A stretch of 64,000 bases of DNA from Alphaproteobacteria bacterium (lineage in GTDB: Bacteria; Pseudomonadota; Alphaproteobacteria; Caulobacterales; Aquidulcibacteraceae): positions 30,567 through 94,566 of the forward strand of contig JAIXQA010000071.1 in the NCBI GenBank assembly GCA_027485915.1, read 5' to 3'. The notes under the pieces were generated by a model. It saw nothing but the letters and a program-made list of their open reading frames with translations, made no database searches and was not told the DNA's origin. A program made the translations under genes and the position numbers. Every line of letters begins with the position of its first letter. Positions within the stretch are counted from its first letter, which is position 1. This document shows positions 4,300-23,621 of this stretch, piece after piece.

Positions 4300-4376
4300 G
4301 CGCCCGTAGCTCAGCTGGATAGAGCATCAGACTACGAATCTGAGGGTCGGGCGTTCGAATCGCTCCGGGCGCGCCA
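4300..4376 (+). tRNA. tRNA-Arg (ACG)
   Basis: GCGCCCGTAGCTCAGCTGGATAGAGC...TCAGA-CT-ACG-AA-TCTGA...GTTCGAATC...GCGCCA, 77 nt cloverleaf with CCA. Confidence 0.98.
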
Positions 4377-5170: not shown

Positions 5171-5372
5171 AAGCTGGTGGTCAAGGGGCATGGTCGGCCT
5201 GCCGATCACGCGACGCGTGACCCCTTGAGGGCCAGATTTGGTGCAACAAAATCACCTAGCAGCTTCAGGGCAAGCAAAGCGCCGCATTGAAGCTGTTCCT
5301 AGGCGTCCTAGAGAGTGACTGTTACCTGCTCCATTTGTGTCTTGGATTTGCGAACTAACTTGGTCTGCTTTG
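5171..5372 (+). repeat. Element backbone block B, copy 1
   Basis: Similar to 26539-26789 (which carries a ~50 bp insertion); similarity ends at GGTCTGCTTTG. Confidence 0.88.
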
Positions 5373-5838
5373 CGCGAAGGGTGGTTTACAAAACTGCTTG
5401 GGTTCGAGTTTCAAAGGAGACATTGCGAAAACGAAAAATGGAGGCTGATGAGGAAACTCAGCATGTTAAATATTCAGACTACCAAAATTTGGGGCATGGG
5501 AATTTTATGTACTGCATTGGGCGGTTCTTTGACATGAGAACCACCAAATGATGCTGTTGCGCTTCGCGGGTTGACAAGTGCTATCCCTTTCTGCTCAGCG
5601 CGGTTTATAGGTGGGTGCATCTTGCACCTAACGTACAGTATAACGATCTCAAGTAAATTTGACTGTGCTTACATCCTTGTTATTCTAGATCTGGCGGTTA
5701 ATGAATCGTCCTGCTCGCCCTAAAATGGCGTTTGGCACTCAATTGCAGAATGCTGCGCCTTGGACCGGATTCTATTCAGACCCAGGACACAGCCCCGCCG
5801 AGCCATTGACGGTGCTCTTTTATGCTTGGATTTCGAAA

Positions 5839-7245
5839 ATGTTGCTGACCATTTCTACAACCCATCAACCAGCAACAGACTTGGGTTACGTCCTGATGAA
5901 GCACCCAGATAGTGTTCATAGTATTGACGTATCCTTTGGTCGAGCCACGCTATTCTACCCTTTTTCGACAGAAGAACGCTGCACTGCCGCGATAACACTC
6001 CAAGTTGACCCGGTTGCGTTGGTGAGGGGTAAAACGAGTATCGAAGAACAATATGTCAATGATCGGCCTTATGCCGCCTCTTCATTGCTTTCGGTTGCCT
6101 TGGGGCGATTATTGAATACTGCAATGGCGGGTCGTTCCAAGCTCCGTCAGGAGCTGGCCGACACGCCAATTCCGCTTGAGTGCTTTCTAACACCGCTCCC
6201 AGCGCGTGGCTCGGCTGACTTACTCGCGCGATTGTTTGAACCATTGGGATACAAAGTTACGGTAGAGCCAGTTCCCCTTGATCCGGCTCATCCCGATTGG
6301 GGCCCAAGCCCCTACGTCTCGCTAAGCTTAAAAGGCAACGTACGCGTTCAGGAACTCCTCACGCATTTGTTCGTGCTGATTCCGGTTTTGGACAACGCGA
6401 AGCATTACTACGTCGGCGAAGATGAAGTCAAAAAATTGCTTAAAAAAGGTGACGGTTGGCTTGAAGTTCACCCTGATAAGGAGCTGATTGTTCGCCGGTA
6501 CCTATTGGGCTTCAAGTCTTTAGTGCGGTCTGCATCAGAGAAACTGGACGACCGAGCAGAAGCAGAGGAGTTTGAAGAGCACGCGACACGAGATGCTGTG
6601 GAGGAAAAACTCGAAAAGCCAATTAGGCTCAACACACAGCGAATGGACTATATAGCCAATTTGATCCGCCAGCTTGATGCTGCGAGCGTTCTTGACCTTG
6701 GTTGCGGGGAGGGTCGCTTACTACGCCAACTCTTACTGATAAAAGGACTGGACCGGATCGTTGGGGTGGAAGTTGCACCGCGCGTTTTGGCCAAGGCAGG
6801 TGAGCGCTTGAAACTAGATCACATGCCCGACATTAAACGAAAACGTATCGAGCTTCTTCAAGGGTCACTTGTTTATCGCGATGACCGCCTGAAAGGCTTT
6901 GATGTTGCAGCTCTTGTTGAGGTGATAGAGCATGTCGATGCTGAACGGCTACCCGCGCTAGAAGCGGCACTGTTCGGTCATGCGCAACCAGCCAACGTCA
7001 TCGTAACAACGCCCAATAGTGAGTATAATGTATTGTTTGAAGGCATGGAGCCAGAGGCGCTGCGGCACCCAGACCATCGGTTTGAATGGTCACGTTCACA
7101 ATTCAATAACTGGGCCGAGGCAGTCGCTAAAGGATATGGGTATAATGTGCGGTATGAAGGGATCGGGCACGAAGATCAGACGCATGGATATCCGACCCAA
7201 GTCGCCATTTTTTCGCGCGCAAAGCCAACACAGGTAACTGTATGA
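5839..7245 (+). CDS. hen1: 3'-terminal RNA ribose 2'-O-methyltransferase Hen1
   Basis: MLLTISTTHQPATDLGYVLMKHP N-terminus, YVNDRPY, SAM motif VLDLGCGEG, EVIEH and HPDHRFEW; start moved from 5701 to ATG 5839. Confidence 0.95.
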   Translation: MLLTISTTHQPATDLGYVLMKHPDSVHSIDVSFGRATLFYPFSTEERCTAAITLQVDPVALVRGKTSIEEQYVNDRPYAASSLLSVALGRLLNTAMAGRSKLRQELADTPIPLECFLTPLPARGSADLLARLFEPLGYKVTVEPVPLDPAHPDWGPSPYVSLSLKGNVRVQELLTHLFVLIPVLDNAKHYYVGEDEVKKLLKKGDGWLEVHPDKELIVRRYLLGFKSLVRSASEKLDDRAEAEEFEEHATRDAVEEKLEKPIRLNTQRMDYIANLIRQLDAASVLDLGCGEGRLLRQLLLIKGLDRIVGVEVAPRVLAKAGERLKLDHMPDIKRKRIELLQGSLVYRDDRLKGFDVAALVEVIEHVDAERLPALEAALFGHAQPANVIVTTPNSEYNVLFEGMEPEALRHPDHRFEWSRSQFNNWAEAVAKGYGYNVRYEGIGHEDQTHGYPTQVAIFSRAKPTQVTV

Positions 7246-9785
7246 AGATCGAGGTTCCAGAATTTGCGCTTGTCCTACTTGTCGGTGCGTCGGGGATGGG
7301 TAAGTCCACCTTTGCTGCAAAGCACTTTCTACCTACAGAAGTCGTTTCCTCAGATCGCATGCGTGGCTGGATAGCCGACGACGAAACCGATCAGTCCGCG
7401 ACGAGTGATGCTTTTGATGTGCTGAATTTGATAGTTGAAAAGCGCCTTAAGAATCGCCGGTTTACCGTTATTGACGCAACAAACGTTCAACCCGAAGCTC
7501 GAAAAGGCCTCGTTGCCTTGGCGCGCAAATGGCACGCCTTGATCGTCGCGATTACATTCGAATTGCCAGAGGCAGTTGCAATATCTCGCAACGCTTTGCG
7601 GCCGGATCGACAGTTTGGAGCCGGGCCTGTTCGGCGGCAAATCTTGAACTTAAAGCGCTCCGTAAAAAATATGACGCGCGAGGGGATTCGCTATGTACAC
7701 CGACTGCAATCTCTAGACGAGGTCGAAGCCGTTGAAATCACTCGGACAAGGCTTTGGACTGACCGACGCAATGATACCGGCCCGTTTGATATCATTGGTG
7801 ACGTTCACGGTTGTGCAGACGAACTTGAGATAATTCTTGATAAACTCGGCTATGAAGTCAGGTGGGACGACAAAAAGGTAAGCGTAACGCCGCCGCCGGG
7901 CCGTCGTGCAATCTTTGTTGGTGACCTGGTTGATCGCGGTCCGCGATCTCCTGATGTCTTGCGCATCGCCAAGCATATGGTGGATTCTGGGACAGCGCTG
8001 GCTGTAGTGGGAAACCATGATGACAAGCTGAAGCGTCACCTAGATGGACGAAACGTCAAAACGACGCATGGGCTTGCGGAAACGATTGAGCAATTGGCGC
8101 AAGAACCGCCGGAGTTTCTGGCAGAAATGCGCAAATGGCTTGATGGCCTGATAAGCCATTACCTCCTTGACGATGGCAAACTGGTTGTCGCGCATGCGGG
8201 CCTAAGAGAAGAAATGCAAGGGCGCGCATCTGGTGCGATTCGAAGTTTCTGCATGTATGGTGAGACAACTGGCGAGATTGATGAGTTTGGCCTTCCGGTC
8301 CGTTGGGACTGGGCGTCAGAGTACAAAGGGCGGGCTAAAGTTGTCTTTGGTCATACGCCTGTTCAAGAAGCAAGTTGGGTCAATGGGACAATTTGCATCG
8401 ACACTGGCTGCGTGTTCGGTGGCAAACTGACTGCACTTCGCTACCCTGAGCTGGAATTGGTTTCGGTTGATGCCAAAGAGATGTATTACGAGCCAATCCG
8501 CCCGCTTCAATCACCAATTGCCGAAAGGCTCAGTGGTCCGGTCGACCAACTCGATATCGCAGATGTCCTCGGCAAACAGGTCATTCAAACTGATCTTTTT
8601 GGATATGTCACGATCCAAGAAGACAATTCTGCCGCAGCACTTGAGATTATGACACGCTTTGCAGTGGATCCTCATTGGCTGATCCACTTACCGCCTACGA
8701 TGTCTCCTTCACAATCGAGCAGCCAAGATGGATGGCTCGAACGACCCGAAGAAGCTTTTAGCTATTACGGCTCAAGGGGCGTAAAGCAGATTGTACTTGA
8801 AGAAAAGCACATGGGCTCGCGCGCTCTAGTAGTTTTATCAAAGTCGGAGGAAGAGGCTGCAAAGCGATTTGGCGTCCGCGATGGATCGCGCGGCTCTATC
8901 GTTACACGCACCGGCAGGCGTTTTTTCAATGATTTAGAACTCGAAGCAGAAGTCTTGCAGCGCATCGATGACGCCATGAAAGTTTCGAACCTTTGGGCGG
9001 AGCTCGAGACCGATTGGGTGCTTTGGGATTGTGAAATTATGCCTTGGAGCATGAAGGCCGGGGCACTTGTACGTGGACAATATGCTTCAGTCGGCGCGGC
9101 GGCCAATGCCGGCCTATCAGCGCTCGATGAAGCCTTGCAGGCCGCACTTGCCCGTGGGGTCGACATCGCAGGTCTGGCATCACAAACATCGCAGCGGCTT
9201 GAGGCAGCGGCCAACTATCGAACTGCTTACAATCGCTACATCAGGCCATTTTCGGGCATTGCTGACCTAAAGATTGCGCCGTTCCACCTATTAGCTTCAG
9301 AAGGTCAGGTACATAGCAATCAGAATCACCTCTGGCACATGAAGATGGCGCATGAATTGGCGGCTGGAGACAGCGCCTTATTGCTGGCAACTGACTATCG
9401 GTCCATTGACCTCGAAGATGCATCGGAAGTCAAAGCGGCTATAGAATGGTGGGAAGAATTAACGGCCGGTGGTGGTGAGGGCATGGTCGTCAAGCCGCTA
9501 GACTATGTCTCACGGGACAAGCGTGGCCTTTTGCAGCCAGCCATCAAGTGCCGTGGCCGAGAGTATTTGCGGATAATCTACGGACCTGACTATGATCATA
9601 CAGGCAATATTGAGCGTCTCAAGAAACGAAGTCTTGGCCATAAGCAATCAATGGCATTACGTGAGTTTGCCTTGGGGATCGAGGCCCTCAAGCGGTTTGT
9701 AAATCACGCCCCGCTAACCCGTGTACACCAATGTGTGTTTGGGGTGCTGGCAATGGAGAGTGAGCCCGTTGATCCGAGGCTGTAA
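7242..9785 (+). CDS. pnkp: Polynucleotide kinase-phosphatase-ligase Pnkp
   Basis: P-loop GASGMGKST; phosphoesterase GDVHG/GDLVDRG/GNHD; ligase motifs EEKHMGSR, EGMVVKP, KCRGREYL; overlaps hen1 stop. Confidence 0.95.
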   Translation: MKIEVPEFALVLLVGASGMGKSTFAAKHFLPTEVVSSDRMRGWIADDETDQSATSDAFDVLNLIVEKRLKNRRFTVIDATNVQPEARKGLVALARKWHALIVAITFELPEAVAISRNALRPDRQFGAGPVRRQILNLKRSVKNMTREGIRYVHRLQSLDEVEAVEITRTRLWTDRRNDTGPFDIIGDVHGCADELEIILDKLGYEVRWDDKKVSVTPPPGRRAIFVGDLVDRGPRSPDVLRIAKHMVDSGTALAVVGNHDDKLKRHLDGRNVKTTHGLAETIEQLAQEPPEFLAEMRKWLDGLISHYLLDDGKLVVAHAGLREEMQGRASGAIRSFCMYGETTGEIDEFGLPVRWDWASEYKGRAKVVFGHTPVQEASWVNGTICIDTGCVFGGKLTALRYPELELVSVDAKEMYYEPIRPLQSPIAERLSGPVDQLDIADVLGKQVIQTDLFGYVTIQEDNSAAALEIMTRFAVDPHWLIHLPPTMSPSQSSSQDGWLERPEEAFSYYGSRGVKQIVLEEKHMGSRALVVLSKSEEEAAKRFGVRDGSRGSIVTRTGRRFFNDLELEAEVLQRIDDAMKVSNLWAELETDWVLWDCEIMPWSMKAGALVRGQYASVGAAANAGLSALDEALQAALARGVDIAGLASQTSQRLEAAANYRTAYNRYIRPFSGIADLKIAPFHLLASEGQVHSNQNHLWHMKMAHELAAGDSALLLATDYRSIDLEDASEVKAAIEWWEELTAGGGEGMVVKPLDYVSRDKRGLLQPAIKCRGREYLRIIYGPDYDHTGNIERLKKRSLGHKQSMALREFALGIEALKRFVNHAPLTRVHQCVFGVLAMESEPVDPRL

Positions 9786-9938
9786 CTTAACTTCTTCCGA
9801 AGCGCTCGTTTAACGGTCCGTCTGGCTTGATTTTCTCGAAGGGTATTCTGTTGCTACAATCTGACTAGCGTGCAGAAATAGAAGCAGCTGCTAAGGTGGG
9901 TCTAATGCCAAACAGGGCTGCTTCTTTAGTATTAATGT

Positions 9939-9966
9939 CCAAACCAGACCAACCGCTTTCGGCCAA
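9939..9966 (-). repeat. Palindromic spacer repeat R0 (reverse orientation)
   Basis: Reverse complement TTGGCCGAAAGCGGTTGGTCTGGTTTGG matches 17453-17480 at 26/28. Confidence 0.75.
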
Positions 9967-10060
9967 ACCCGGCCAAAACAAGAACCAATTTCCGGATTAG
10001 GAAAGCATCGCAGGGCTGGCCATAAAACCACCAAAAAAGCCCCATTCGGGCCTCTGAACT

Positions 10061-10217
10061 GACGACTTAAGACGACTTATATTGCCCAAAAATGGACGAC
10101 TTAAAGCAAGTTATAGGGGGTGTAAGATAACTTGTCTAAAATCACATATAATCAATAGGATAAACAAACTGACGACTTGGGTCCTTTTATCTTGCCCCGC
10201 AACACAAAAAACGACTT
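10061..10217 (+). repeat. Iteron-like direct repeats, [G/A]ACGACTT x5
   Basis: Copies at 10061, 10071, 10095, 10171 and 10210 in AT-rich non-coding DNA. Confidence 0.7.
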
Positions 10218-10455
10218 ACATTTCTCTGTCGCCATTCAATCATTACCATCCAAAAGCCCGCCTCATTTTCAAGCAAAGCCAACATGGCCAGCAAGTCAGG
10301 GGATCTCTAAACAATCGCGGTTGCCTGGTAGAATCGGCTGCATCCATAACTCGGGCAGTTATTGGCCATGTAGGCCCCCAGATAGGCCATGAGCGCTTGA
10401 AGCCCCACAAATGACTCCTGAGGCGTGATTTGGCTAAAGGCTAAAGCTGAGGCTG

Positions 10456-10833
10456 TTAGAACGGCAAGGGCATTGAGGCGGGCGCTAATTGCCTTTGGCG
10501 GCGCAGTTTTGATTGAGGGCCTCGGGGTTTGGACAGTGACGGGGGCAGGGGGCTTGGCGCTCGATTGTCTTGTTCGGCTGCGTAGGCTGCGACGCGCGGT
10601 TCGCTCGAGGATCTGCGGGGCGCTGAGAGGTGTTCGTGGAAATAGTCGTCGAGGTGGCGTCGCCAATACATAGCGCGGTCACCGACATGGGTGCAAAGCG
10701 GGCCGCACCCTTCATGGAATTTCCGCGCGAGTGTCTGGGCTGCCATCTCTAAGCCCAAGTCTGTCAAATAGGCTGCTGCGTCCTTACGGTTCAGCAAGCG
10801 ATCCCGTTTTGTCTCGGTCTCTCCATCATCCAT
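10456..10833 (-). CDS. Excisionase/AlpA-like winged HTH protein
   Basis: RLLNRKDAAAYL...AAQTLAR....G.GP......RAMYWRRHLDDY pattern typical of recombination directionality factors; basic low-complexity tail. Confidence 0.75.
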   Translation of the reverse strand: MDDGETETKRDRLLNRKDAAAYLTDLGLEMAAQTLARKFHEGCGPLCTHVGDRAMYWRRHLDDYFHEHLSAPRRSSSEPRVAAYAAEQDNRAPSPLPPSLSKPRGPQSKLRRQRQLAPASMPLPF

Positions 10834-11195
10834 GGATTCAATCCTTTTCGTCTATTTCCTTCCCTGTCAGCTGAATTTTGCTGGCAAAGGTGGTCGCTGC
10901 AGGATTTATGCCGTGAGGTTGCGAGGCAATCACCTCAAGGCCATCGCATGGCTAGCATTTCCTCGGAATTGCGCGGAATTGATTGGAATGGGTAGGTTTG
11001 AGGCCATTATGTTAAGATTACTCTGAGCGATGATGACTCAATACTTTGGAGACTTAATCGTCACGGATGTTTGTCTGATTTTGGGACAGTCTTTTTTAGG
11101 TTTAATTGAGACGGTCCCCCGCTTTTCAGAGCGAATCCGCGCCATGGGGTGGCCCATCGTCCTGCCAGTTTGTGGGTTCAAGGAATGGCGACAAT

Positions 11196-11227
11196 TTGCC
11201 GAATGCGGCTGGTCTGGTTTGGGGGCG
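11196..11227 (+). repeat. Palindromic spacer repeat R1
   Basis: TTGCCGAATGCGGCTGGTCTGGTTTGGGGGC, about 20 bp from the stop of ORF 11249-11911. Confidence 0.7.
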
Positions 11228-11248
11228 CTTGGACACAAACCGCGCAGA

Positions 11249-11911
11249 TTAGCTCCTCGTTGCGAATACCTTGCGCGTTCCCTTGAACTCGCTGTCGTTG
11301 TCTACGTTTCCGTCCGTCGAGAATCGAACCTGATCGTTGAGAAATGCATCAAAGATCGATGCGATCTCGGACTGCGTGAAATGAAATAGCTGAGTCCTGC
11401 TTTGAATGTCCGACGCGATGAGAAGCCCATCGGGCATAAATCCATTGCCAGATAGCACGCCGATGACCCGCGCGTGCAACATCTTGTCGGATATGAACTT
11501 CGGAGTCCCCATCTCGGGGTACCTCGCCGTCAAGTCGTAGTTTTTGAAGATATTGCTGGCCGTTTCGCTTACAAATGGTTCGCGCCAATCCTCGTCGGCC
11601 CTCGCAACCACCTTGTGGATCTGAAGTGCCGTGTCGCGAAAATGATCTGTTACCAGCCGACATTCGATAAGCCGCCGCATGCAGACCGCGGCAACGCCGA
11701 TCGCTCGCTCGAGCATATGATAGGGATTGTGTTCGGTTTCCGCTTCCCGCAGCGCCTCGCCAAGGTGCAAGTCGATGCGCCTCTGTTGCTCGGCCAGTTC
11801 GTTCTTCCATACATAGTCCTGCCAGCTGGAAGAGCGGACGCAGCCCATTTTGCGCATCTGCTCAAGCTGCTTTTCGATATCCTCTTGCTGCATCTGAATC
11901 CTCAGCCCCAC
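11249..11911 (-). CDS. Hypothetical protein (cassette-like)
   Basis: 220 aa globular-looking ORF between R1 and R2; true start may be an internal Met. Confidence 0.7.
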   Translation of the reverse strand: MGLRIQMQQEDIEKQLEQMRKMGCVRSSSWQDYVWKNELAEQQRRIDLHLGEALREAETEHNPYHMLERAIGVAAVCMRRLIECRLVTDHFRDTALQIHKVVARADEDWREPFVSETASNIFKNYDLTARYPEMGTPKFISDKMLHARVIGVLSGNGFMPDGLLIASDIQSRTQLFHFTQSEIASIFDAFLNDQVRFSTDGNVDNDSEFKGTRKVFATRS

Positions 11912-12140
11912 TTATGGGAATAGATATTCATCCAACTTCAGCAAACTGCAAGGCTCTTGCGGAGAGCTGCCGGAACAACGCCTGCACCGGAACCAACGGA
12001 TCGAGCCATTCAGCCTAGGGGACGCGTTCGAGGATAACCTTCTGTCGGTCATAGGTTCCACCGGGAACACTAGCCAGCCTCCTCAGAAAGCGGATTCACC
12101 GGACGGTGCGATTGCACAGCAATGTCGGGGGCGCTTATTC

Positions 12141-12277
12141 AACGTCCGGTTTCAAGCAACCGCCGCCCCGTCCCATAACGACCATCCTTGGAGCAGTTGA
12201 GACCGGCGGCATTTCGGCAATAGTTGGCCGATTGCTGCTGGTCCGCTTTGGGAGCTTGGGCGGCGTAAGCGGACGTT
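12141..12277 (+). repeat. Palindromic spacer repeat R2 (long form)
   Basis: ~135 bp similar to 14390-14523; ends GGTCCGCTTTGGGAGC...AAGCGGACGTT. Confidence 0.85.
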
Positions 12278-12393
12278 TTGAGCTCCTGCGCGCCAAAGGC
12301 AGCTTTCGCTCTATCTAGCTTGTTCCATTTCCTTGATGCACGTTCTAAGAATTCAGATAATTCAAGTACGCGTTTAACCTTAAAGTAGATGGA

Positions 12394-12981
12394 TTGATGA
12401 ACAAAATGATCACCCCAGCGCTCCTTACTGAAGAACGAATACTATGGGAAGGTAAGGCGTTCCGAGGGATCATATTCCGGCCAATCGATTTGTTCTTGGT
12501 GCCGCTTAGCCTTGTTTTTGGTGGCCTATCACTGGTCTGGATTGGGAGTGCTGAGGGCACAGCTGAAGATCTAATTCTGAAACTAGGTTGCCTACCGATC
12601 CTTATTTTTGGCTTGTATGGGGCGTTAGGTAGATTTGTAATCGACGCCAGCATACGAAGGAAAATCGCCTATTTCGTGACGAATAAGCGGGTGCTCATCG
12701 TAAACAGCCATGACGGATCGACCGCTGAATGGGTCGGGATTGACAGCCTTCCTTCACTAGAGCTCGATGAGCGTCCAGACGGCTCCGGCACGATCCGTTT
12801 TGGTAAATCAGTTGGTTGGTGGACGGGTAACTTTACCCCGGAAAATGGAAGGGTCTTGGACCAGCTAGAAAGTGACATGGACATGATTTGGCAACCAATG
12901 TCGGACCCAACACCACAGTTTATAAGGATTCCGAATGCCCGCTCGGTGTATGAATTGATCCAGAGTCTGATTAAGCAATAA
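12394..12981 (+). CDS. Membrane protein with bacterial PH-like domain
   Basis: EERILWEG, two TM helices, YFVTNKRVLI, DGSGTIRFG, FIRIPNARSVYELI. Confidence 0.75.
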   Translation: MMNKMITPALLTEERILWEGKAFRGIIFRPIDLFLVPLSLVFGGLSLVWIGSAEGTAEDLILKLGCLPILIFGLYGALGRFVIDASIRRKIAYFVTNKRVLIVNSHDGSTAEWVGIDSLPSLELDERPDGSGTIRFGKSVGWWTGNFTPENGRVLDQLESDMDMIWQPMSDPTPQFIRIPNARSVYELIQSLIKQ

Positions 12982-13067
12982 GCAACATCTCCTGGCAGTT
13001 TGACGAAAACAAATTGGTGTGTCCGTTGGCTCCAGTCAGGATCTCCAAGTTTCTTTCCGCAAGGCAA

Positions 13068-13124
13068 CCTCTGGCCGAAAGGGGCTGGTCTGCTTTGGGG
13101 GCGTTGCTGGCGAAAGCGGACGTT
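13068..13124 (+). repeat. Palindromic spacer repeat R3
   Basis: CTCTGGCCGAAAGGGGCTGGTCTGCTTTGGGGGCGTTGCTGGCGAAAGCGGACGTT. Confidence 0.8.
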
Positions 13125-13240
13125 CAAAGGGTCTAGGCCCAATTTGACTGTCGCCAGCTGCCTTGGAAATGGAGCAGGCCAGATGGATGGCACATTCCGG
13201 CTCTAACTATCCAGTTACGCCTATAATTGGCTGAAGGCGG

Positions 13241-14212
13241 TCATCGCTCAAGTCCATCGGCGACGACTTCGCGGCCTAATTGCGGGGCTCGAATGAGGTG
13301 CCGGAAACGGTTAAACGTGTCTTCGCCTAGCAAACTTGAATAGGCCATAAGGCAACGCGGGTCGTATGGTTCTCTGTCTAGCCACGACCAAGGTTCAAAG
13401 CGTGCACCTGCTCGAACCAAGGCTGCATCGATTTTTTCCACTTCAGTTACCCAATTCGCTGAAACTGGTTTGGCACCGTCAATCCGGGTGCTACCATCAT
13501 TTTTGAAGTGAACTTCATAAATCGGATCGTCTCCGTCATCGGTGTGGTTGCACCCGACTTCAATTCGATTTGCATTGGCCCAGTAGCGGATTGTACGGTC
13601 GGGCAAAAAAGTATGCTGTTCTTCATATCGATCTGAAAAATAGAGTGTGAACGCGTTAAGCTCGCGTGCGGTAACGATAGTTGATGCAAGTGCAAATGCG
13701 GCTGCCAAAAGTCCAAAGCGATTTGCTGATAAAATTATGAATCTCCGGATGTAGCGAGTCGGATGCGGATCGTCCGCACGCTCGCTGCTCACCATTCGTA
13801 AGCGAGTGCCTGCTGCTCGAAAGGTACCCAAGGAACTTGTGACCGCTTGCAAAAACTCCACCGCAGCCTGCCTTGGTACAAACGCGACTATTACAAGGAA
13901 GATCCAAGCGGAAGCAAAAATCCAAGCGAAGAGGCCAATCACCGGGCCTATGCCAAAGTTATGATAGTACAATAGCGCACCGGAAGACTTGGCTGCAGAA
14001 AGCGCATTTTGCTCGATTTGCACTTCGAGAATAGGCCAAACCCAGAGCCATTTGACTATGATACCGGATACAAACACAATGTAAAAGCATACCGTTGGCC
14101 ATCGAATTAAAGGTGGTTCTTGATTACGAAGATAGACAGCGACGGGTCTCGGCACACCAATACTCACGAGCTCCTCTTCAGTCATTACCTGGTCGGAATT
14201 ACTCATGAACAC
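13241..14212 (-). CDS. Hypothetical multi-pass membrane protein (cassette-like)
   Basis: 323 aa, three hydrophobic helices and a soluble C-terminal domain; between R3 and R4. Confidence 0.7.
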   Translation of the reverse strand: MFMSNSDQVMTEEELVSIGVPRPVAVYLRNQEPPLIRWPTVCFYIVFVSGIIVKWLWVWPILEVQIEQNALSAAKSSGALLYYHNFGIGPVIGLFAWIFASAWIFLVIVAFVPRQAAVEFLQAVTSSLGTFRAAGTRLRMVSSERADDPHPTRYIRRFIILSANRFGLLAAAFALASTIVTARELNAFTLYFSDRYEEQHTFLPDRTIRYWANANRIEVGCNHTDDGDDPIYEVHFKNDGSTRIDGAKPVSANWVTEVEKIDAALVRAGARFEPWSWLDREPYDPRCLMAYSSLLGEDTFNRFRHLIRAPQLGREVVADGLER

Positions 14213-14389
14213 CTCGCAATTGGCCTAGCTACAGCCCACCTCAAAAAGTGGCATCAATCCTCCAACGCCTAATCCAGTTCCGAACAGTCATCAACCTTGA
14301 GTTCTGGTGGTCCAACTTTCCTAGAATTTAGCCATGAGCCTGTGGCATCCTTAGACGAATTTGGAGCGCACTTATTACTTGAGCCATTT

Positions 14390-14523
14390 AATGTCGGCTT
14401 TCAAGCAACCGCCAGCCCACCCCAAACAACCACCCTTGGCGCGTTTGAGACGGTCGGCATTTCGGCAATAGTTGGCCGATTGCGGATGGTCTGGTTTGGG
14501 GAGCGAGGGCGGTGAAAGCTGCC
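14390..14523 (+). repeat. Palindromic spacer repeat R4 (long form)
   Basis: AATGTCGGCTTTCAAGCAACCGCC...TTGGCCGATTGCGGATGGTCTGGTTTGGGGAGC...GAAAGCTGCC; aligns with R2. Confidence 0.85.
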
Positions 14524-14619
14524 TTTTAATGGCGAACAGATTCTTCCGATAAATCGCGGAAGCTGCGGCTCGACGGCAGGCCGCACCTTTTTTTATGATG
14601 GTTGTTTCCTAAGCTCGCA

Positions 14620-14940
14620 CTATTCGTTATCGTGCGATTTCAAGGCAGACAATTCGGCGCTTTCACGCTTTAATGGGCGCGAAACTGGACAAACTTCTTG
14701 GACGTAGGAATTCAGAGTGTTGACCAGATTCTCGCCAATCAGGCGGTAATAAACATATTGGCCACGCTTTTCACCGGCGATTAAGCCGGCATTTTCTAGG
14801 ATCGAAAGATGCTGAGATACCGCTGGCTTGGACATGTCAAAGCGCGCGGCAATCTCACCCGCACTGAGCTCTGCCTCAGACAAATAAGCAAGGATCTTCC
14901 GTCGGGGGGTAGAGGCGAGTGCTTCGAAAATTTTCTGCAT
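14620..14940 (-). CDS. ArsR/SmtB family repressor (SdpR-like)
   Basis: IFEALASTPRRKILAYL...SAGEIAARFDMSKPAVSQHLSILENAGLI...KRGQYVYY. Confidence 0.92.
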   Translation of the reverse strand: MQKIFEALASTPRRKILAYLSEAELSAGEIAARFDMSKPAVSQHLSILENAGLIAGEKRGQYVYYRLIGENLVNTLNSYVQEVCPVSRPLKRESAELSALKSHDNE

Positions 14941-14958
14941 AGTTATAATTAAGGAATA

Positions 14959-14996
14959 AGCTAATCACTTGACAAGCCCCCTTGTGTGATTAAGCT
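14959..14996. promoter_or_regulatory. Putative ArsR operator overlapping a -35 box
   Basis: Inverted repeat AGCTAATCAC..ACAAG/CTTGT..GTGATTAAGCT containing TTGACA (14969-14974), between divergent genes. Confidence 0.55.
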
Positions 14997-15030
14997 ATGA
15001 GTTAATTACTTTGCAAAATGGGAGGGGGCA

Positions 15031-15993
15031 ATGGAGGCCGGCCAACAAGGGGAAGACCGCTGTCGTGTAAACAGCCTTGAGGAGACACCTGGCTGCGATC
15101 CTACGCGCGGCTCGGTGCATTGGGACCCCGTGCACTCGCTATGGAATGGTGGAATGCTTGCCGCTTCGATCATACTGGGCCCGGTCTTGGTGACATGGGA
15201 CGCAGTTTTGGTTTTCCTCCTTCTGACTGGGGTATCGCTGCTCCTCGGGCATAGCGTTGGCTTTCACCGCCGACTTATCCATCGCAGCTTTGCCTGCCCA
15301 CTTTGGTTAGAGCGGTTCCTGGTTTGGGTAGGCACCTGTGTTGGTATGAGCGGACCGTTCTGGATGATCAGGACGCATGATTTACGAGATTGGGCGCAAA
15401 GGAACCCGCATTGCCACGACTACCTGGCGCACCGAGGTGGGATGCTGCGGGACTATTATTGGCAAGTACATTGTCGCCTTGCGCTGGATAATCCGCCTCG
15501 CTTTGATCTTGGGCGGATCGGGCGCGATCCGTTCTACCAATTCTTAGAACGAACCTGGATGTTGCAGCAGCTCCCCATTGCGGCTGTGCTATTTGGTCTC
15601 GGAGGATGGAGTTGGGTGGTTTGGGGCATTTGTATGCGGGTGACCGCATCTGTCACGGGTCATTGGTTTGTTGGCCATTTGGCACACACGCGCGGGCCGC
15701 AGAGTTGGCAAGTTGTAGCCGCCGGTGTTCAAGCCCACGACGTGCCATGGGCTGCGATCCCCACTATGGGCGAGGCTTGGCATAATAATCATCATGCTTA
15801 TCCGGGTTCGGCACGGATGGGACTCTATCCCGGTCAATCCGATTGGGGCTTCAGATTTATCTCGCTCCTCGAACGAATGGGCCTAGCATGGGATATCATT
15901 TTACCCGAGCATTTGGACCGCGCGTGGGCGATTAGATCCGTTCAATCCGATCTGATTTCCGACCAGCGCGAACTGGGGAGTCGGGCATCATGA
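15031..15993 (+). CDS. Acyl-CoA/fatty acid desaturase
   Basis: His boxes GHSVGFHRRLIH, HDLRDWAQ, WHNNHH; TM segments. Confidence 0.9.
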   Translation: MEAGQQGEDRCRVNSLEETPGCDPTRGSVHWDPVHSLWNGGMLAASIILGPVLVTWDAVLVFLLLTGVSLLLGHSVGFHRRLIHRSFACPLWLERFLVWVGTCVGMSGPFWMIRTHDLRDWAQRNPHCHDYLAHRGGMLRDYYWQVHCRLALDNPPRFDLGRIGRDPFYQFLERTWMLQQLPIAAVLFGLGGWSWVVWGICMRVTASVTGHWFVGHLAHTRGPQSWQVVAAGVQAHDVPWAAIPTMGEAWHNNHHAYPGSARMGLYPGQSDWGFRFISLLERMGLAWDIILPEHLDRAWAIRSVQSDLISDQRELGSRAS

Positions 15994-17303
15994 ACATCTT
16001 TTTCACTGAACTCGCCCGGCGCGTGCGCTATTTGGTGCTTTCGCTCTCACTCATTGCTAGCCAAAATCTTATGGTTTGGAAGGCAATGCAAACTTTTGCG
16101 CCCGATGCATCGCTTGACTCAGAGTTTTGGCTAACCCCATTGCGCAGTGCGCTTGAAATCATAGGCCTTCCGCCTCTGTGGGGCGCCCTGTTTTTCGCCT
16201 ACTTTCTCGGGGTCGCCTACATACTTGCTTTGCTCGCATTCAGCCTCGCCCGCCGAACAAAGCGTGGCTTCACGCTTGCGGTGTTGTGTGTAGTTCCTGT
16301 GATCCAGCTTGGCGCGATCGTCATCAACACACTTCTTCCTTCTAGAAAGGAAACTAACGACGATAGTCGCACTTCAAATCATGTGGCAAAGAGCATTGTT
16401 GTGGGGCTGATAGCTGGGACTGCAATCATTGTCCTCGCAGTCCTCATTTCTGCTGTCACATTTGGTGCCTACGGTTGGGGCCTATTCGTGATGACGCCTT
16501 TTCTTGTGGGGGCGGTCACTGGGTACTTGCTAAACTCAGAGTCCGACCTTGGCCTTAGTACAACGCTAAGCCTGTCCGTATTGGCTGGCGGGCTTGGAAG
16601 CCTCGCCCTAATTGTCATGGCACTGGAAGGAATTGTCTGCATCATACTTGCAGCCCCCTTGGCCCTTCCGTTGGTGATGATCGGCGCAGGGCTAGGCCGG
16701 GCTATTGCCAAGGCTCGCCATACGCGTGGCACCCCACTCATGAGTGTTGCCGTGCTGCCAATAATCTTCATGCTGGAGGGAGCTATTCCACCTGAAGCGC
16801 CGATTCATACGCGCTATGATGTCGAGATTAGTGCGCCGGCGGAAAAGGTCTGGGCTGCCTTAGTCAGCGATGAGCCAATTAGAATTTCGCCGGGGCTACC
16901 TGCCGTAGCTGGCCTTGCCTATCCAATACGCTCGAAACTTGAAGGTGAAGGCGTCGGCGCAAAACGCTTAGGCACCTTCTCCACTGGCCAAGCGACAGAA
17001 GTCGTCACCAAGTGGGTTCCCAATAGACTGCTAGCCTTCAAGGTCCAGCATCAGCCTGCTGCCATGGAAGAAATGAGCCCTTACCGGCGGGTCCATGCCC
17101 CGCATGTAGAAGGCTATTTTGTAACCGGGGAGACCCGCTTTGATCTGGTCCCCCTTACAAAGGATCGGACGCGGCTACAGATCACTTCAGAACATGTGCT
17201 AGGAATTGATCCGATCCCCTACTGGGAGCCGATTGCGCGCTTGGCAATCTGGTCCAACGTCAGTCGCGTTCTCGACGACATAAAGGCAAAGTCGGAGACA
17301 TGA
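15990..17303 (+). CDS. Multi-pass membrane protein with C-terminal SRPBCC domain
   Basis: Many TM helices, then VEISAPAEKVWAALV...EGVGAKRLGTF...WVPNRLLAF; overlaps desaturase stop. Confidence 0.8.
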   Translation: MNIFFTELARRVRYLVLSLSLIASQNLMVWKAMQTFAPDASLDSEFWLTPLRSALEIIGLPPLWGALFFAYFLGVAYILALLAFSLARRTKRGFTLAVLCVVPVIQLGAIVINTLLPSRKETNDDSRTSNHVAKSIVVGLIAGTAIIVLAVLISAVTFGAYGWGLFVMTPFLVGAVTGYLLNSESDLGLSTTLSLSVLAGGLGSLALIVMALEGIVCIILAAPLALPLVMIGAGLGRAIAKARHTRGTPLMSVAVLPIIFMLEGAIPPEAPIHTRYDVEISAPAEKVWAALVSDEPIRISPGLPAVAGLAYPIRSKLEGEGVGAKRLGTFSTGQATEVVTKWVPNRLLAFKVQHQPAAMEEMSPYRRVHAPHVEGYFVTGETRFDLVPLTKDRTRLQITSEHVLGIDPIPYWEPIARLAIWSNVSRVLDDIKAKSET

Positions 17304-17448
17304 TCGGCATTTGGTTTGCAGAATGCGCTCTGCTTGGGTTTGGCAACAGCATTTGCCCCCTCTCTGCCTCACAAGCCAGCGAAAGACTGGTCGCGAATGC
17401 GGTTCCAAATGTCTGACTGGTTGGTTCGTCTGCCTTGAACGAATTACC

Positions 17449-17507
17449 ACTCTTGGCCGAAAGCGGACGGTCTGGTTTGGGGTGCGTAAGGTGGGAAAGC
17501 TGCCGTT
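17449..17507 (+). repeat. Palindromic spacer repeat R5
   Basis: CTCTTGGCCGAAAGCGGACGGTCTGGTTTGGGGTGCGTAAGGTGGGAAAGCTGCCGTT. Confidence 0.8.
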
Positions 17508-17754
17508 CCGAAGAGTGGGAGCACTTCAATCGCCGAATAATTTTAGTCAGAAATGATCCCGGTAAGCAGGCCGGATTCTCTCCTTTTAAATATAACAAAC
17601 TAGCCTTCACTTAGGCCTCAGAGCCTTAGTCTAGTCCTTAGCAAACGATTATTACGGACAGAGATTATTTTTTGCTTGTGTAATCCTAAATCCGTGGCAA
17701 ATTTCCTTACCTTAAATGTTTAATAACCAAGAAAATAAAATTGGGTGGGTTTTC

Positions 17755-20700
17755 ATGGCTGACTTAGAGAATAAAGTTATTGCCAATTCAAATTGTTTGG
17801 AACTCGCTGCTCCAAGATGGGCGGCGCTTCTTGCCTTCTTAATCGGCCTCCTGTCCGGCAATCTGGCTTTAGCCCAAGCCAGTCCAGCTTACGCAGGTTT
17901 GCATGCTCCACTTGTGCGGAGCATGGACAGCAACAATGTAAACTTGTTGGCGGGGCCCAGTTTTGTCGTAACCGACGTTACAATTGGTGATCCCCAAGTT
18001 GGTGGCCTCGAGTTTTCGAGGTCCTTCAATACAGTACACGGAGGTCTCTTTGGGAGCTGGACAGTCAGTCCGGGGTCCGAGCAGGTAGTTGGGACCAATG
18101 GTTGGGTGGCGGAAGACTATTCAGCTTATCTCGGCTATGGCGTCACGTATGGGCACGGCAGCCAAGTTTTCGAACTCACAGGTGGTGCTGAAGCTGGCGG
18201 CACATATATCTCGCAAGCAGCAAACGGCGAAACTCTAGAAATCGATTTATTCAATAATCAATTCACTGATCGCAGTCGCTTTTCTTTCTACAAAAGGGAC
18301 GGAAGCCGATTAGTTTTTGAGCGGCGTCTTTTGAGGTCCGTCGAAAAGCCAAATGGAATTGTGATTACATATAACTACGCAAGTGTTTTGGATTCTGGCT
18401 ATACGCGAGAAATTCTGCGGTCGGTGACCTCCAACGCGGGCTATATGCTTCACTTCCAGTACGGCTCTCCCGGTACAGGTCTGAGATATGAAGTGAGCGA
18501 GCATAGCTTTGAGATAACCAAAGTTGTCGGGATTAATACGAGAATTTATCCGTGCGACCCGCTGGCGGTAATCTGCGCTGATGCATTCAACGGAGTGACT
18601 TGGCCTTCCGTTACTTTTAGGCGGGAATCAGCTGGGCTTATGCTGGTGGGCAGCTATTCAGACGGGCGCTTAACAAAATTTAGGTCTGAATACTCAAATA
18701 CCGCAACCTATATGCCAGGTAGTTGGGCAAAAGCGGAATTGAGCATTCAAAGCGCAGCTGGAAACAGCATTTCGATTGGAAGCTATCAGGCGACCCGCTT
18801 TACCAACTATATTCAAACGAGCCAAGTATCACGCAATGGTTCGTTCAACTATCGGTTTGATACCCAAGGCGGAGGTCAAAACGGGATTATTGAGCCATTG
18901 CGGATAATTGGCGGTTCAGTAACTGGACCCGCGAGCTATACCTCCAGTTGGACCACCGATCAGCAGTGTCAGTTTACAGTCTTCGGCATTTGCAGTCCTG
19001 ATCTTCTTTCGACAGTAACCGTCAATGGCCGCACCACAAGGTATGCCTATGGCTGTGCCAACCCTGAATGCATGATGACTGATTGGAATCCTAAGCGATT
19101 AATCCGTGTGACTCAGCATGATGGAGACTATACCGATGTTCAATACGATAAGCGGGGCAATATTCTAAAGCTTATAAAGACCCCGAAGCCAGGTTCTGGC
19201 CTCGCTGTGATCGTTGAAACTGCTGTTTACCCAGAGGTTGGCAGTCTTTTGTGCGTTAACCGGAAAACCTGCAATCAACCTATCTCGACTAGGGACGCGG
19301 CAGGTAACCAAACAGATTATATTTATGAGGCTGCCCGCGGTGACTTACTGAGCAAGATTGCACCGGCTCCGGGTGGAACGGGGCCCTATGCAACAGTGCG
19401 CCCAACAACCAATTATACCTATGAGAATGTTGGCGGCTCCGGTATCTGGAAACTCAAGACGACCTCAATATGTGCCATAGCAGCGACTTGCTCCGGAAGC
19501 GCAAGCAATTCAGTAGTTCAATTCAATTACAATCATCCCAACTATCTCTTGTCAGACGAGACAAAGTCCTCTGGAGATGGTGCCATTACGGCCACGACAG
19601 CACTGACTTACACCGCACTTGGTGACCTGGAGTCGACGGACGGACCGTTGCCTGGCACCTTTGATAAGTCGTGGGCTTTTTACGATGTGATGCGCCGAAA
19701 AGTTGCAACAGTAGGGCCTGATCCAGACGAAGGGGGGCCACTATTGCCCCGTGCTCAAAAATTGACTCTAAACGCTGCTGGGCTTGTTACACTGACAGAT
19801 ATCGGGACGGTTGCTTCGCCACAAAATTGGGCCAGCCTTACCGTCCTTAAACGAGAGGAAACAGCATACGATAGCTATGGGAGGAAAACGCGCCAACTGG
19901 TGCGCGATTATACTTTGGCGGGCGGAGCCATCCAAAGGGCAACAAACTGGAGCTATGATGGTGCAGGAAGGGTCCAATGTGAAGCAAATCGCATGAACCC
20001 CGCCTCCTTTCTGCAGGCAGTTTCGGCGTGCGTCCAGACAACTCAAAATCCAAGCTTTGGTCCAGATCGAATTACCCGTACTAGCTATACGGCGAATGGC
20101 GACATTTCGAAGATTGAAGAGGGCTTAGGCACACCGCTTTTGCGAAATGCACGAGTCATGACCTATCTGGCACCAGGGCAAGTCTCCACAATTTCTGACG
20201 CCAATGGGAACCGGACTACTTATTCATATGATGGATTTAATCGTCTGATTAAGACGCGTTTCCCTAGTGCGACAACGGCCGGGACCAGCTCTACTACTGA
20301 CTACACCGCCGAAACCTTTGATAATTTCGGTCGACCGAAAACTCAGCGCACGCGAAGCGGTTATGTCTTTACTTTGAGTTACGACAACCTCAGTCGGGTT
20401 GTGTCGCGTATTGGAGCTGGAAATTCAACAACTTATGCCTTTGCGTATGACGTAAAGGGCCGAACACTAAGCACCACAAATGTTCAGTCGGGTGTAAGCA
20501 CCATTGCATCGGCAACCTACGATGCATTTGATCGGCAGATTACCGATACGACGCCAAATGGCACTGTCAGTTATGTCTATGATGCGGCTGATCGCAGGGC
20601 TCGCCTGACTTGGCCCAATGGTTATTTTGTTACATACGAATATGACAGGACTAATGCCTTAAAAGCGATTAGGGACAACACTGCAGCACTTTTGGTGAGC

Positions 20701-22137
20701 TACAATTATGACAATTTAGGCCGACGCTCGCAAATTGCGCGTGGCAATTCAACAACAACTAACTATGCCTATGAAGCCAGCGGGGGACTTGATAGTTTGT
20801 CTCACGATCTTGCGGGGACAGTCAACGACACCGCAAGTGCCTTTGACTATAATAGCGTTGGCCAAATCACTACGCGAAACATTTCAAATGCTGCTTACCG
20901 TTGGAATGCGTCAACATTGGTCAATGATGCTTATGTTCCAAACGGACTCAACCAGATCGGTTCACGAAACGGAATTGCCTTTTCCTATGACACACAAGGC
21001 AACCTCACTTCTGACGGCAACAACACGTTTCAATACGACAAAGAAAATCGGCTAATCGCATCACCTTCGCGTGGTATTGCCATTAAGTATGACGCCCTGG
21101 GAAGGCTTGCTAGCACAAGTGCGGCCTTGATCGGAACTGCTCAGTTCCTTTATGATGGCAGGCAATTGATTTGGGAAAGCAGCGAGGATGGGTCACAGCG
21201 GCTTTTTGTGCACGGGGTAGGGCCCGATGAGCCCGTCTTGGCAATCGAGAACGGTACGAAATATTGGTACCACGCTGATGAACGCGGTTCGATTGTCGCG
21301 CGATCAGATAGTGCGGGTAACCTCGTAGGTGCAGTCAATACATATGACGAATTTGGCATTCCCTCGGCATCGAACTCGGGAAGGCTGCAATATACCGGGC
21401 AAATGTGGCTGCCTACTTTGCAACTCTATCACTATAAGGCTCGCCAGTATCGACCTGACCTTGGTCGATTCATGCAGACTGACCCAATTGGATATACGGA
21501 TCAGATCAACCTGTATGCTTATGTTGGTAATGATCCTATTAACAAGAGCGACCCCACAGGGCTAGCGCAAGATTGCGGAAACGGAACAGCAGCCATGCCT
21601 GGCGGGTGTCCAATTTCGCCAAATATGATGATGCCCGCAGATATGGCGGGCGTTAATTTCTACGGAGGCCGAATAGGAGTATCTTCGCCAGGTTATGCGC
21701 GAAATCAGAGAATAAGCGCGGAAGCCGCAAACAGAGACGCTGCCTTTGGCCAGTATAATGCGCCACCATATCGCGCTGGCACAACTGTTGTAGAAGGACG
21801 CACTACACGAGAAATGATCACTTTGCGGTTTTCGGCGCCATCTGCAACCAATCCCAAGGGGCAAGGTGGGTGGGTTGCGCCAAACGATCCAGCGCTACTG
21901 GCCATGACACCGAAAGAGATTCAGATCGCACTACAATTGCCAACCACGCCAACTCACGTTTCAATGGTCCGCATTCCCGCTGGCACCGAGACACAAATTG
22001 GTATGGTGGGCCAACAGCCAGGCTTAGCGGCTCCGCCTTCGAGCAGCGTTCAAATCCGATTGCTTGAAAGAGTTCCAAGCAGTAATTGGGGTGACCCGGT
22101 TCCAATAGGGGAACGGCCACCCCTTCCACAGCATTAA
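17755..22137 (+). CDS. RHS/YD-repeat polymorphic toxin with signal peptide
   Basis: YD repeats; RHS core end LQYTGQMW...[22 protein letters not shown]...[18 protein letters not shown]; ~145 aa variable tip; Sec-like leader ending ALAQA; start ATG 17755 (ORF track 17716). Confidence 0.95.
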
Positions 22138-22158
22138 TAGCATTTAAGGACAGTTGTT

Positions 22159-22551
22159 TTGGATAGAGACCTTCAAATCCTTTTGTCGCGTCAAATAACC
22201 ATGTCCGTTGCGATGCCTTGGGGCAGGATCGCGTGTTACGAGACTGAAAATGGGACGATCGACGACATAACTGACAAACGAAAGCCGGCTGTCAATTTAA
22301 ACTATGAAGAGCGATTGGCCTATTACAAGATTTTCCTTTTCAAATATGCGAACAGCAATATCGTGGCGACAAACCATGATGGAAGCGTCAGATGGATTAT
22401 TCATGGGTTTACAGATTTTGGCGAACACCAACCGTTCATTGGGGTGGCGTTTGTCGATGGAAAAATTAAAGCTGAAAATTGGGTTGGGCGAGTATATGAT
22501 GTGGATCCAGAAACAGGACAATGTTCGAATGAAGTACTAAAATTACTCTGA
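22159..22551 (+). CDS. Candidate cognate immunity protein
   Basis: Small ORF 21 bp after the RHS stop, same strand; NIVAT..DGSVRW...PFIGV.....AENWVG....VDPETG. Confidence 0.65.
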   Translation: MDRDLQILLSRQITMSVAMPWGRIACYETENGTIDDITDKRKPAVNLNYEERLAYYKIFLFKYANSNIVATNHDGSVRWIIHGFTDFGEHQPFIGVAFVDGKIKAENWVGRVYDVDPETGQCSNEVLKLL

Positions 22552-23161
22552 TTCATCTATTGTTTTCAGGACATGTGACTAAATGATATTGGCGCGGCTT
22601 GCCAGCACGTGAACCACCATTTTTCAAGGGCCCTGTGAGATCTGATGGCATCGGAAGAGCAAGGTTGAGTACTGCGGAAGGGTAAGCGTTCAAGCTTGGC
22701 GGACCGGAGGTGTAGTTGGTTGATGTAACGCAATGGTCAGACCCACGGATGTAGAGCGACATATTCGCTTTAAAGCTTTGGACTCTAGGGCAGCCTGAGT
22801 CCCCAAAAGCGAAAGTACAAGACCATCACAGTAGCTACGACTCTTGCCAATAGCATCTCGATCATTGAGCTGGACTGCCCCGTTAGGGGTAATATAACTC
22901 CAATGTTTTAGTACCTCCGGCAAGCTAGGCTTGGAGTGTTCGAACATCGTGAAGGCGACTGATGCGCGCGGGACCTTACAACCTGATTGACAGGGCTGAT
23001 CATTTAAAGGCCAAGACAATGACGACCTTGCCGCGATTAGACGAACGGACTTTGAGCAGCCAATGCGGGTAACGCAGCGCGTCCCGGCGGTTTACGATTT
23101 ACTAGGCGCTTACGGCTCGCTTTAAAATTGTCATTAGCCTACAATCTAATAGTGAATTCTT

Positions 23162-23584: not shown

Positions 23585-23621
23585 CTTACCACTCCAGAAG
23601 GCTTGGTTGCCGAATAAATAA

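Follow-up and report, generated by a model that had tools for sequence, protein, structure and literature searches.

Organization of the tRNA-linked island

The stretch of DNA analyzed here, which we refer to as the window, comprises 64,000 nucleotides (nt) of an alphaproteobacterial genome (C79:30567-94566 of an assembly of 3.31 Mb in 82 contigs, labeled G000 below). It contains a genomic island in which units of cargo genes are separated by copies of a family of repeats composed of three linked modules, the palindromes R and E and a longer element S, and it is this repeat family that we examined in the window and in related genomes. The island adjoins a tRNA-Arg(ACG) gene (4300-4376, plus strand; ARAGORN and Rfam), the 3' 47 nt of which form its left attachment (att) copy. 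These 47 nt recur perfectly at 26072-26119 (plus strand) as a partial tRNA-Arg 3' end, the right att copy, and the island is therefore about 21.7 kb long. The segments of approximately 1 kb that follow the two att copies (X1 and X2) are duplicated at 78-91% identity, which points to the remnant of a second, tandem island. Each segment contains a degenerate E on the minus strand, located at 5361-5432 in X1, where it closes the left cargo zone, and at 26778-26847 in X2, where it would belong to that remnant.

The left cargo zone holds a single unit, the Hen1-Pnkp RNA-repair pair (5701-9785, plus strand; Pfam Hen1_L and PNKP_ligase), which lies between the E of X1 and R0 (9905-9991, minus strand; nhmmer E=1e-12, pattern match with 0 mismatches). 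R0 is the left bound of c1 (9992-11164), a platform with a small helix-turn-helix (HTH)-type gene at 10456-10833 on the minus strand. R1 (11165-11252, plus strand; profile and pattern, 3' half degenerate) opens the right cargo zone. In this zone c2 (11249-11911, minus strand), encoding a 220-aa protein without a family match, is followed by the composite junction E.R2 (12133-12283, plus strand; profile search), c3 (12394-12981, plus strand), encoding a 195-aa protein whose gene is 69% identical in genome G007, and R3 (13044-13130, plus strand; profile and pattern). Next come c4 (13241-14212, minus strand), encoding a 323-aa protein, with the whole R3-to-R4 unit 80% identical to G007 C1:21043-22473, the composite junction E.R4 (14381-14537, plus strand; profile search), c5 (14620-17303) and R5 (17429-17515, plus strand; profile and pattern). 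The last unit consists of an RHS protein and small neighboring genes (17716-24493; Pfam RHS_repeat), and the zone is closed by E (24494-24575, plus strand; nhmmer E=2e-21), directly after the stop codon of a P4-type tyrosine integrase with Arm-DNA-bind_3 and Phage_integrase domains (24590-25822, minus strand; Pfam). From this order of the repeats we conclude that two R-to-E cargo zones diverge from c1. Past the right att copy, a fragment of S, derived from an IS110-family insertion sequence (IS), is followed by R6 at 29856-29939 (29486-29939 in all, plus strand; homology and profile).

The enclosed genes are unrelated and of mixed orientation, in agreement with an earlier reading made from the sequence only. 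Neither Pfam nor PHROGs gave a match for the c1-c4 proteins, and Pfam identified an ArsR regulator (minus strand), a fatty-acid desaturase (plus strand) and an SRPBCC protein (plus strand) in c5, for which a search of the genus returned no homologue elsewhere. Outside the island, an open reading frame (ORF) at 1326-2285 encodes a repetitive protein and contains eight tandem 54-nt units at 1437-1954; sequence resembling this unit recurs on contigs C7, C80 and C2.

A conserved backbone with exchanged contents

The sequence-only reading had counted c1 among the cargo units. Comparison with related genomes places it instead in a conserved backbone, since it is 90-92% identical in different surroundings: 92% in G010, the complete genome CP012156.1 of Hyphomonadaceae bacterium UKL13-1, and 90% in G006 and G007, with right-hand neighbors that differ. 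The sister island in G010 encodes an integrase 99% identical in protein sequence to that of the window, and the two islands have only c1 and one block (window 24473-26277, 89% nt identity) in common. This block comprises E, the integrase, att and the start of X2. All content between R and E differs between the two islands, and homology resumes at E 24494.

The c1 ORF is under purifying selection, with 22 of 26 substitutions among four species at codon position 3. It belongs to a large family of proteins of about 90 aa from Hyphomonadaceae and metagenomes, one member of which is named a helix-turn-helix regulator in one source, and we read the c1 product as a putative protein of the excisionase or regulator type. 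A single-sequence AlphaFold model of it, one long helix with a predicted local distance difference test (pLDDT) score of 67, was not used. Between R0 and the HTH gene there are five GACGACTTA-like direct repeats (10057-10197), which may be binding sites for the HTH protein or for the arm domain of the integrase. The public record of G007, CALRLV020000002.1, is labeled as a Ferrovibrio terrae metagenome-assembled genome; it groups with the UKL13-1 genus and shares the integrase at 98%, and the label is probably wrong.

Structure of the repeats

A motif recurring in the spacers of the island had been described in the sequence-only reading, and the motif family proved real. When up to 3 mismatches are allowed, the pattern TGGCCGAWWGSGGNNGGTCYGSTTTGG occurs in the window at 9939 (minus strand), 11196, 12225, 13072, 14473 and 17454; six matches compare with 0.01 expected by chance, and none of 100 shuffles reaches six. 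A profile search of the window recovers seven copies, R0 to R6, with the R portions of the two composites at 12194-12283 and 14442-14537. Extended to the whole of G000, it finds 18 solid R copies (E < 1e-9), and many copies are on short contigs or at contig ends. Three further positions had been listed as decayed copies. Two of these, 5362 and 26779/26830 (minus strand), are degenerate E elements in reverse orientation, whereas 29891 (plus strand) is a real R, namely R6; the well-preserved E beside the integrase was missing from that list.

R is a palindromic unit of approximately 65 nt with the consensus GGCAAnAnT TGGCCGAAAGCGGATGGTCTGSTTTGGGG-loop-GGCGGCGAAAGCGGACGTT. It contains two direct copies of a 16-nt motif, KKGGCSSA|AAGCGGAY (motif A), and one inverted copy between them. 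E, the second palindrome, reads AAYGTCCGCTTTCGAGCAACCGCC..CCCTTGGCGCA and continues with AAGCAGAC as a single element or with TTTGAGAC.. where R is joined to it; to judge from its sequence, E is the hairpin of the right part of R, reversed and with a longer loop. The long stretch shared by R2 and R4, which had been noticed before, extends over about 145 nt and is explained by their composite structure, as each consists of an E (12133-12222 and 14381-14470, respectively) joined to R. The E.R composite has 14-nt terminal inverted repeats.

Arrays of these elements follow the layout R-cargo-(E.R-cargo)n-E, and cargo units without E exist as well (c3 and c5). R and E are always intergenic and their orientation is unrelated to the direction of the adjoining genes. 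The c1 platform carries the left half of motif A at each of its ends, facing outward. No T-run was found after the element. Rfam returned no family match to the repeat at gathering or E-value thresholds, and a known RNA family was therefore rejected as the identity of R.

Distribution of R within the genus

The R sequence model finds 1-31 copies per genome in all 16 genomes of the UKL13-1 genus and none in 25 genomes from 20 other genera of the family and order; R is thus confined to one genus of freshwater Hyphomonadaceae. In G010, 22 of the 31 copies have a neighboring copy within 5 kb, and arrays are co-oriented, as in the case of five plus-strand copies at 2.714-2.724 Mb.

In order to locate R with respect to the flexible genome, we compared 16 regions of G010, containing 29 of its 31 R copies, with G000. 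Twelve of the 29 are no more than 350 nt from a point where shared DNA gives way to unshared DNA, and the other 17 are inside unshared DNA, so that all are in variable DNA or at its edge, the enrichment that had been looked for. The scatter between core genes of an ordinary repetitive extragenic palindromic (REP) sequence or miniature inverted-repeat transposable element (MITE) was not seen, as no compared copy (0/29) is in the collinear core. A REP with many core intergenic copies was rejected on this ground, with 18 copies in G000 and 31 in G010. We also rejected a REP or REP-doublet hairpin (REPIN) population driven by a REP-associated tyrosine transposase (RAYT), as the Y1 transposase (PF01797) is absent from G000 and from 14 of 16 genus genomes, with positive controls in 6 genomes. 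Core DNA is only 83-88% identical between species of the genus, and near-identical elements are nevertheless found in both members of such pairs.

One R copy of G000 (C28:70149-70227), about 150 nt from a tRNA gene (about C28:70375-70453), edges DNA restricted to G003 and, in part, to G001 and G005; it is the border of a second tRNA-linked island.

Arrays outside tRNA islands

Arrays also occupy a chromosomal hot spot, a single intergenic site between two core genes (C3:9059 and 10283 in G000). G010 carries there an R, four E.R junctions and a closing E, with five cargo units over 13 kb; G000 and G013 carry one unit, G007 has about 1.6 kb, and G003, G005 and G002 have only 28-38 nt with a plain terminator. 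The number of cargo units at one site is accordingly 0, 1 or 5, and the empty alleles that had been sought do exist. The comparison of filled and empty alleles gave no readable target duplication, the intergenic sequence of the empty alleles being different, and R and E yielded neither a target-site duplication nor a clean empty site.

Cargo units contain 1-4 genes and extend up to 7 kb. Those of the G010 hot spot include a decarboxylase, an ECF sigma factor, an AraC regulator, a porin and an IS110-family element. In a cluster on contig C28 of G000, units with RtcB-PrfH, Sel1 and DUF4288 lie between R copies, and the cluster is adjoined by a gene for a 210-aa tyrosine recombinase, at C28:50566-51195, and by TniA/B/Q genes. 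RNA-repair pairs bounded by R thus occur as Hen1-Pnkp in the window and as RtcB with a PrfH-like RF-1 protein (L001 5801-7533). Further cargo includes Imm11 (twice), WapI immunity and RHS genes, and together with the RNA-repair units these make the cargo rich in conflict systems.

Homology breaks at two equivalent points of R

The flanking homology of related genomes breaks inside the repeat, as the sequence-only reading had anticipated. In order to locate the breaks, we took 110 R copies from 13 genomes, selected pairs that share only their upstream or only their downstream flank, and followed linkage position by position. The upstream-only pairs (43 pairs in 12 clusters) are linked through positions 24-34, with a mismatch of 0.14 against a background of 0.52. 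Linkage is gone by positions 43-46; 41 of the 43 pairs lose it between 35 and 46, and the loop is already unrelated. Among the downstream-only pairs (16 pairs in 10 clusters), 7 share everything from about position 46 and 9 share only what follows about position 78, at the second copy of motif A. An apparent junction at about position 63, suggested by BLAST end points, was rejected as an artefact, as the conservation of positions 45-62 extends to every copy.

The two junctions, J1 (about 42|43) and J2 (about 77|78), occupy the same place in the duplicated motif A, TTGGCCGA|AAGCGGAT and GGCGGCGA|AAGCGGAC, and both motifs continue with AAGCGG (TTGGCCGA|AAGCGG and GGCGGCGA|AAGCGG). This form recurs at the a|e joint of a lone E, TTGGCGCA|AAGCAGAC, as well as at the a|b joint of E.R, TTGGCGCA|TTTGAGAC. 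The trinucleotide just past J1, which can be AAA, ATT, AAG or another, shows linkage to neither flank. In S, the longest homology at about 300 nt, no junctions were seen; the junctions fall in or beside a 7-nt conserved block.

Recombinases and insertion sequences at the sites

The 210-aa tyrosine recombinase is encoded in a module of which we found six copies in four genomes, at 97-98% identity. The six copies are alike up to ...CTGATTGGCCGA, which ends in TTGGCCGA, and then pass into four different continuations: TniQ, a Fic/PIN/HTH region and two others. On the opposite side they are bounded by the a|e point of E, and the module thus runs from the right half to the left half of motif A. If its ends were joined, they would read TTGGCCGA|AAGCGGAATGTCTGCTTTCG, a near-consensus R core. 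In G000 the module is part of a locus with tniA-tniB-tniQ, an R-like site and the recombinase gene (C28:50563-55991; L001 12564-17992), an order that mimics the layout of Tn5053/Tn402 with a tyrosine recombinase in the place of the resolvase. In G005, G014 and G002 the recombinase part is found again, unaccompanied by tni genes, and Fic and PIN genes are located there in the DNA past its R-type site. E lies just past the stop codon of this recombinase and of two further divergent P4-type integrases.

An IS91-family element of 2,662 bp, with a 324-aa tyrosine recombinase upstream of a Y2 transposase, is inserted at TTGGCCGA|AAGG in four different R copies from three species, two in G010 and one each in G001 and G014 (G010 2412333-2414994, which is L045 7333-9994; L038 11564-14225; L114 from 12658; L115 up to 8177). 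The left end of the element is similar to the right half of R. One exact point is thus used by six recombinase modules and four IS91-type insertions, counted as independent, and together with the two junction zones at equivalent positions of the motif this would fit a fixed crossover point. Neither the 210-aa recombinase nor the IS91-type element was accepted as a universal enzyme or driver, on account of their presence in only 4 and 3 of 16 genomes, respectively.

S is a palindrome-rich sequence of approximately 300 nt, always located just 5' of E or R, with more than 25 copies in G000 (for example window 29486-29697 and C49:2289-2706). It is an internally deleted, transposase-less miniature of an IS110-family element. 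Full copies measure 1,457 nt and encode a 382-aa DEDD transposase; one is located at G010 2715292-2716748 (L048 9292-10748), a second copy is 95% identical, and further IS110-family sequence lies at G000 C76:3052-4242. S retains a tip of about 20 nt past the transposase stop (AATGCGCTCCGCGCGGTAG) and a non-coding end of about 265 nt upstream of the transposase. Elements of the IS110 group encode a bridge RNA in their long left end and often target REP sequences (PMC11208160); the long non-coding end kept by S matches the place where such bridge RNAs are encoded. Between species with core DNA that differs by 12-17%, the transposase remains 98-100% identical, and it is absent outside the genus. 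An IS1182-type element also lies in or beside R/E, and three IS families thus use these sites as landing pads.

Comparison with known systems

The sequence-only reading had likened the repeats to the attC sites of integrons, and the part of this analogy that stands is that R and E are boundaries of modules in the flexible genome. Integrons and the clusters of attC sites lacking integron-integrases (CALINs) likewise have co-oriented short cargo units each followed by a conserved imperfect palindrome, arrays that may or may not adjoin a tyrosine recombinase, a recombinase gene next to the half-site at which variable DNA starts, and sites targeted by IS110-family elements. The attC layout, the hairpin and the G|TT junction could not be upheld. 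R arrays lack the R''-L''...L'-R' arrangement and IntI, the absence of which had been correctly noted (for NCBIfam integrase_gron, which has a cut-off of 265 bits, the two recombinases score 34.8 and 20.9), and the junctions are not at a GTT end. The proposal of an attC-like single-stranded DNA hairpin fails as well, since the varying stem positions break pairs: positions 53/85, 55/83 and 57/81 have T.C, T.T and G.G in 24-43% of copies, no compensatory pairs occur, and single-sequence folds gave no common structure. R cargo also differs in its mixed orientation, in carrying its own regulators, in reaching 7 kb and in diverging in two zones from a central platform. An integron was rejected for want of IntI, attC architecture and compensatory hairpin changes.

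The alternative suggestion that the repeats are scars of repeated insertion at the island's own att did not hold. Positions 4345 and 26088 are the only occurrences of the 47-nt tRNA-Arg core, to which R is unrelated, and tandem accretion at this att was rejected. The island does resemble the tandems of integrative and conjugative elements (ICEs) and cis-mobilizable elements (CIMEs) and the tycheposon arrays at tRNA genes in its tRNA-Arg target, its integrase at one end, the putative second tandem remnant (X2 with its E) and its integrase-less cargo units. It differs from such accretion in that its internal repeats have a sequence other than that of the att core and that non-tRNA hot spots lacking an integrase hold arrays as well. 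The pdif (Xer) modules of Acinetobacter plasmids are similar as discrete modules bounded by 28-bp recombination sites in varied contexts. In contrast to pdif, R sites are mostly direct rather than alternating, lie in chromosomal islands rather than plasmids and are unlike the dif candidates of the genome, which read TTCGCATAAT-N-TTATGGGACAA (G000 C15:28981 and C42:4608). As these candidates share nothing with R, a Xer/dif site was rejected as its identity. The presence of two dif-like sites in G000 fits two replicons, as in the two-contig genome G003.

There is also a formal likeness to species- or genus-specific mosaics of short palindromic units, namely REPs and bacterial interspersed mosaic elements (BIMEs), the Neisseria intergenic mosaic element (NIME) with dRS3, and the rhizobium-specific intergenic mosaic element (RIME), on which IS110-family and other IS also land (PMC11208160 for IS110 and REP). 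R differs in having about 20 copies per genome, only in accessory DNA and at module borders, in the lack of a RAYT, and in its polarity, R opening and E closing a cargo zone. As regards MITEs, the terminal inverted repeats of the E.R composite stand beside the failure to find a target-site duplication or a clean empty site for R and E, and S qualifies as a deleted IS110-family element.

Interpretation and alternatives

Put most cautiously, these results mean that R and E mark the bounds of exchangeable cargo modules in the flexible part of the genome in this genus and that exchange takes place inside R. We favor, with about an even chance of its being right, the reading that R is a genus-specific family of sites for the joining of DNA modules, with site-specific exchange at motif A. 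It is favored because the junctions are at equivalent points of the motif, ten independent elements use one exact point and no junctions were seen in the longer homology of S. A cargo unit starts with the right half of motif A and finishes with the left half, and a complete site would be restored if these ends were joined. A unit inserted into a resident R would produce R-cargo-R, and repetition would produce co-oriented arrays. The att sites, the c1 platform with its two outward left halves, and E followed by the integrase form a fixed backbone, and the two cargo zones between its parts are refilled independently of it. The exchange may be carried out by a tyrosine recombinase acting at motif A. 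The candidate is the 210-aa enzyme, whose own gene is such a unit; the island integrases, always beside E, are possibly exchange enzymes too. A more specific version is cassette capture of a non-integron kind, based on the duplicated 16-nt site KKGGCSSA|AAGCGGAY and a 210-aa recombinase that is itself a cassette, with divergent arrays around an HTH platform in tRNA islands and at integrase-less hot spots; we regard it as tentative and rather doubtful.

Several observations weigh against site-specific exchange. The 210-aa recombinase is present in 4 of 16 R-bearing genomes and the IS91-type element with its Y2 transposase in 3 of 16, several arrays have no integrase nearby, and no recombinase is common to all R-bearing genomes. 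The conserved stretches are separated by just 5-7 informative positions, so that the junctions are resolved to zones of about 10 nt, and the pairs are not independent (12 upstream and 10 downstream clusters). Three clusters share the whole of R, their break being no later than position 35, and the break of one lies near 68. Positions 43-45, a hypervariable trinucleotide, might be a hot spot of mutation in the loop of a small hairpin and not an overlap region. These points are in part what would be seen if R, E and S were mosaic repeats of the BIME/NIME/RIME type riding with accessory DNA, exchanged, once transferred from one species to another, through RecA crossovers in the repeats, or through Campbell-type loop-out and re-insertion, with no dedicated recombinase. 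We consider such homology-driven exchange possible, if on the unlikely side. It accounts for the lack of a universal recombinase, for breakpoints at more than one place in R and for linkage that decays stepwise and not at a single base. The S+E+R composites reach about 430 nt, enough for RecA, and near-identical elements in species as divergent as these indicate that DNA flows between them. It does not account for the roughly 300 nt of S having shown no junctions while these cluster in or beside a 7-nt conserved block, for the insertion of six modules and four IS91-type elements at exactly one point, or for junction zones at equivalent points of a duplicated motif.

The repeats could also be the ends of transposon-type cassettes, non-autonomous units bracketed by inverted R/E hairpins in the manner of mobile insertion cassettes or of ISCR/IS91 capture and mobilized in trans by a transposase of the HUH (IS91-family) or another type. 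The reversed E does read GGTCTGCTTTG-loop-CGAAAGCGGACGTT, the same as R positions 51-89, so that inverted repeats of about 40-65 nt flank the units. The IS91-type element both resembles the right half of R at its left end and lands in R, and J1 is in the loop of a small CCG-AWWG-CGG hairpin, which would be a typical geometry for HUH cleavage. We nevertheless find this explanation improbable, given that neither target-site duplications nor clean filled and empty pairs were found, that the Y2 transposase is limited to 3 of 16 genomes and Y1 is missing from 14 of 16, and that c3 and c5 have no E. Finally, R and E might be passive or regulatory, being terminators, insulators or protein-binding sites that are at module borders merely because these are intergenic. 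Their strictly intergenic positions, and the ordinary terminator at the same place in the empty hot-spot allele, are consistent with such a role; the missing T-run, the independence of gene direction, the stem positions without covariation, the restriction to accessory DNA and the silence of Rfam make it very improbable.

If the exchange of cargo at R is enzymatic, the system would be a second, independently evolved answer to the problem that integrons solve, in which small gene units are captured and reshuffled as modules at a defined site. It would be an alphaproteobacterial case, with cargo rich in conflict functions (Hen1-Pnkp, RtcB-PrfH, RHS toxins and Imm11/WapI immunity). It would also be a compact test bed, with sites of 16-28 nt, a candidate recombinase of 210 aa and natural alleles with 0, 1 and 5 units. 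Even if the exchange is homology-driven, a small genus-specific repeat family can organize a flexible genome, and three IS families home on its repeats.

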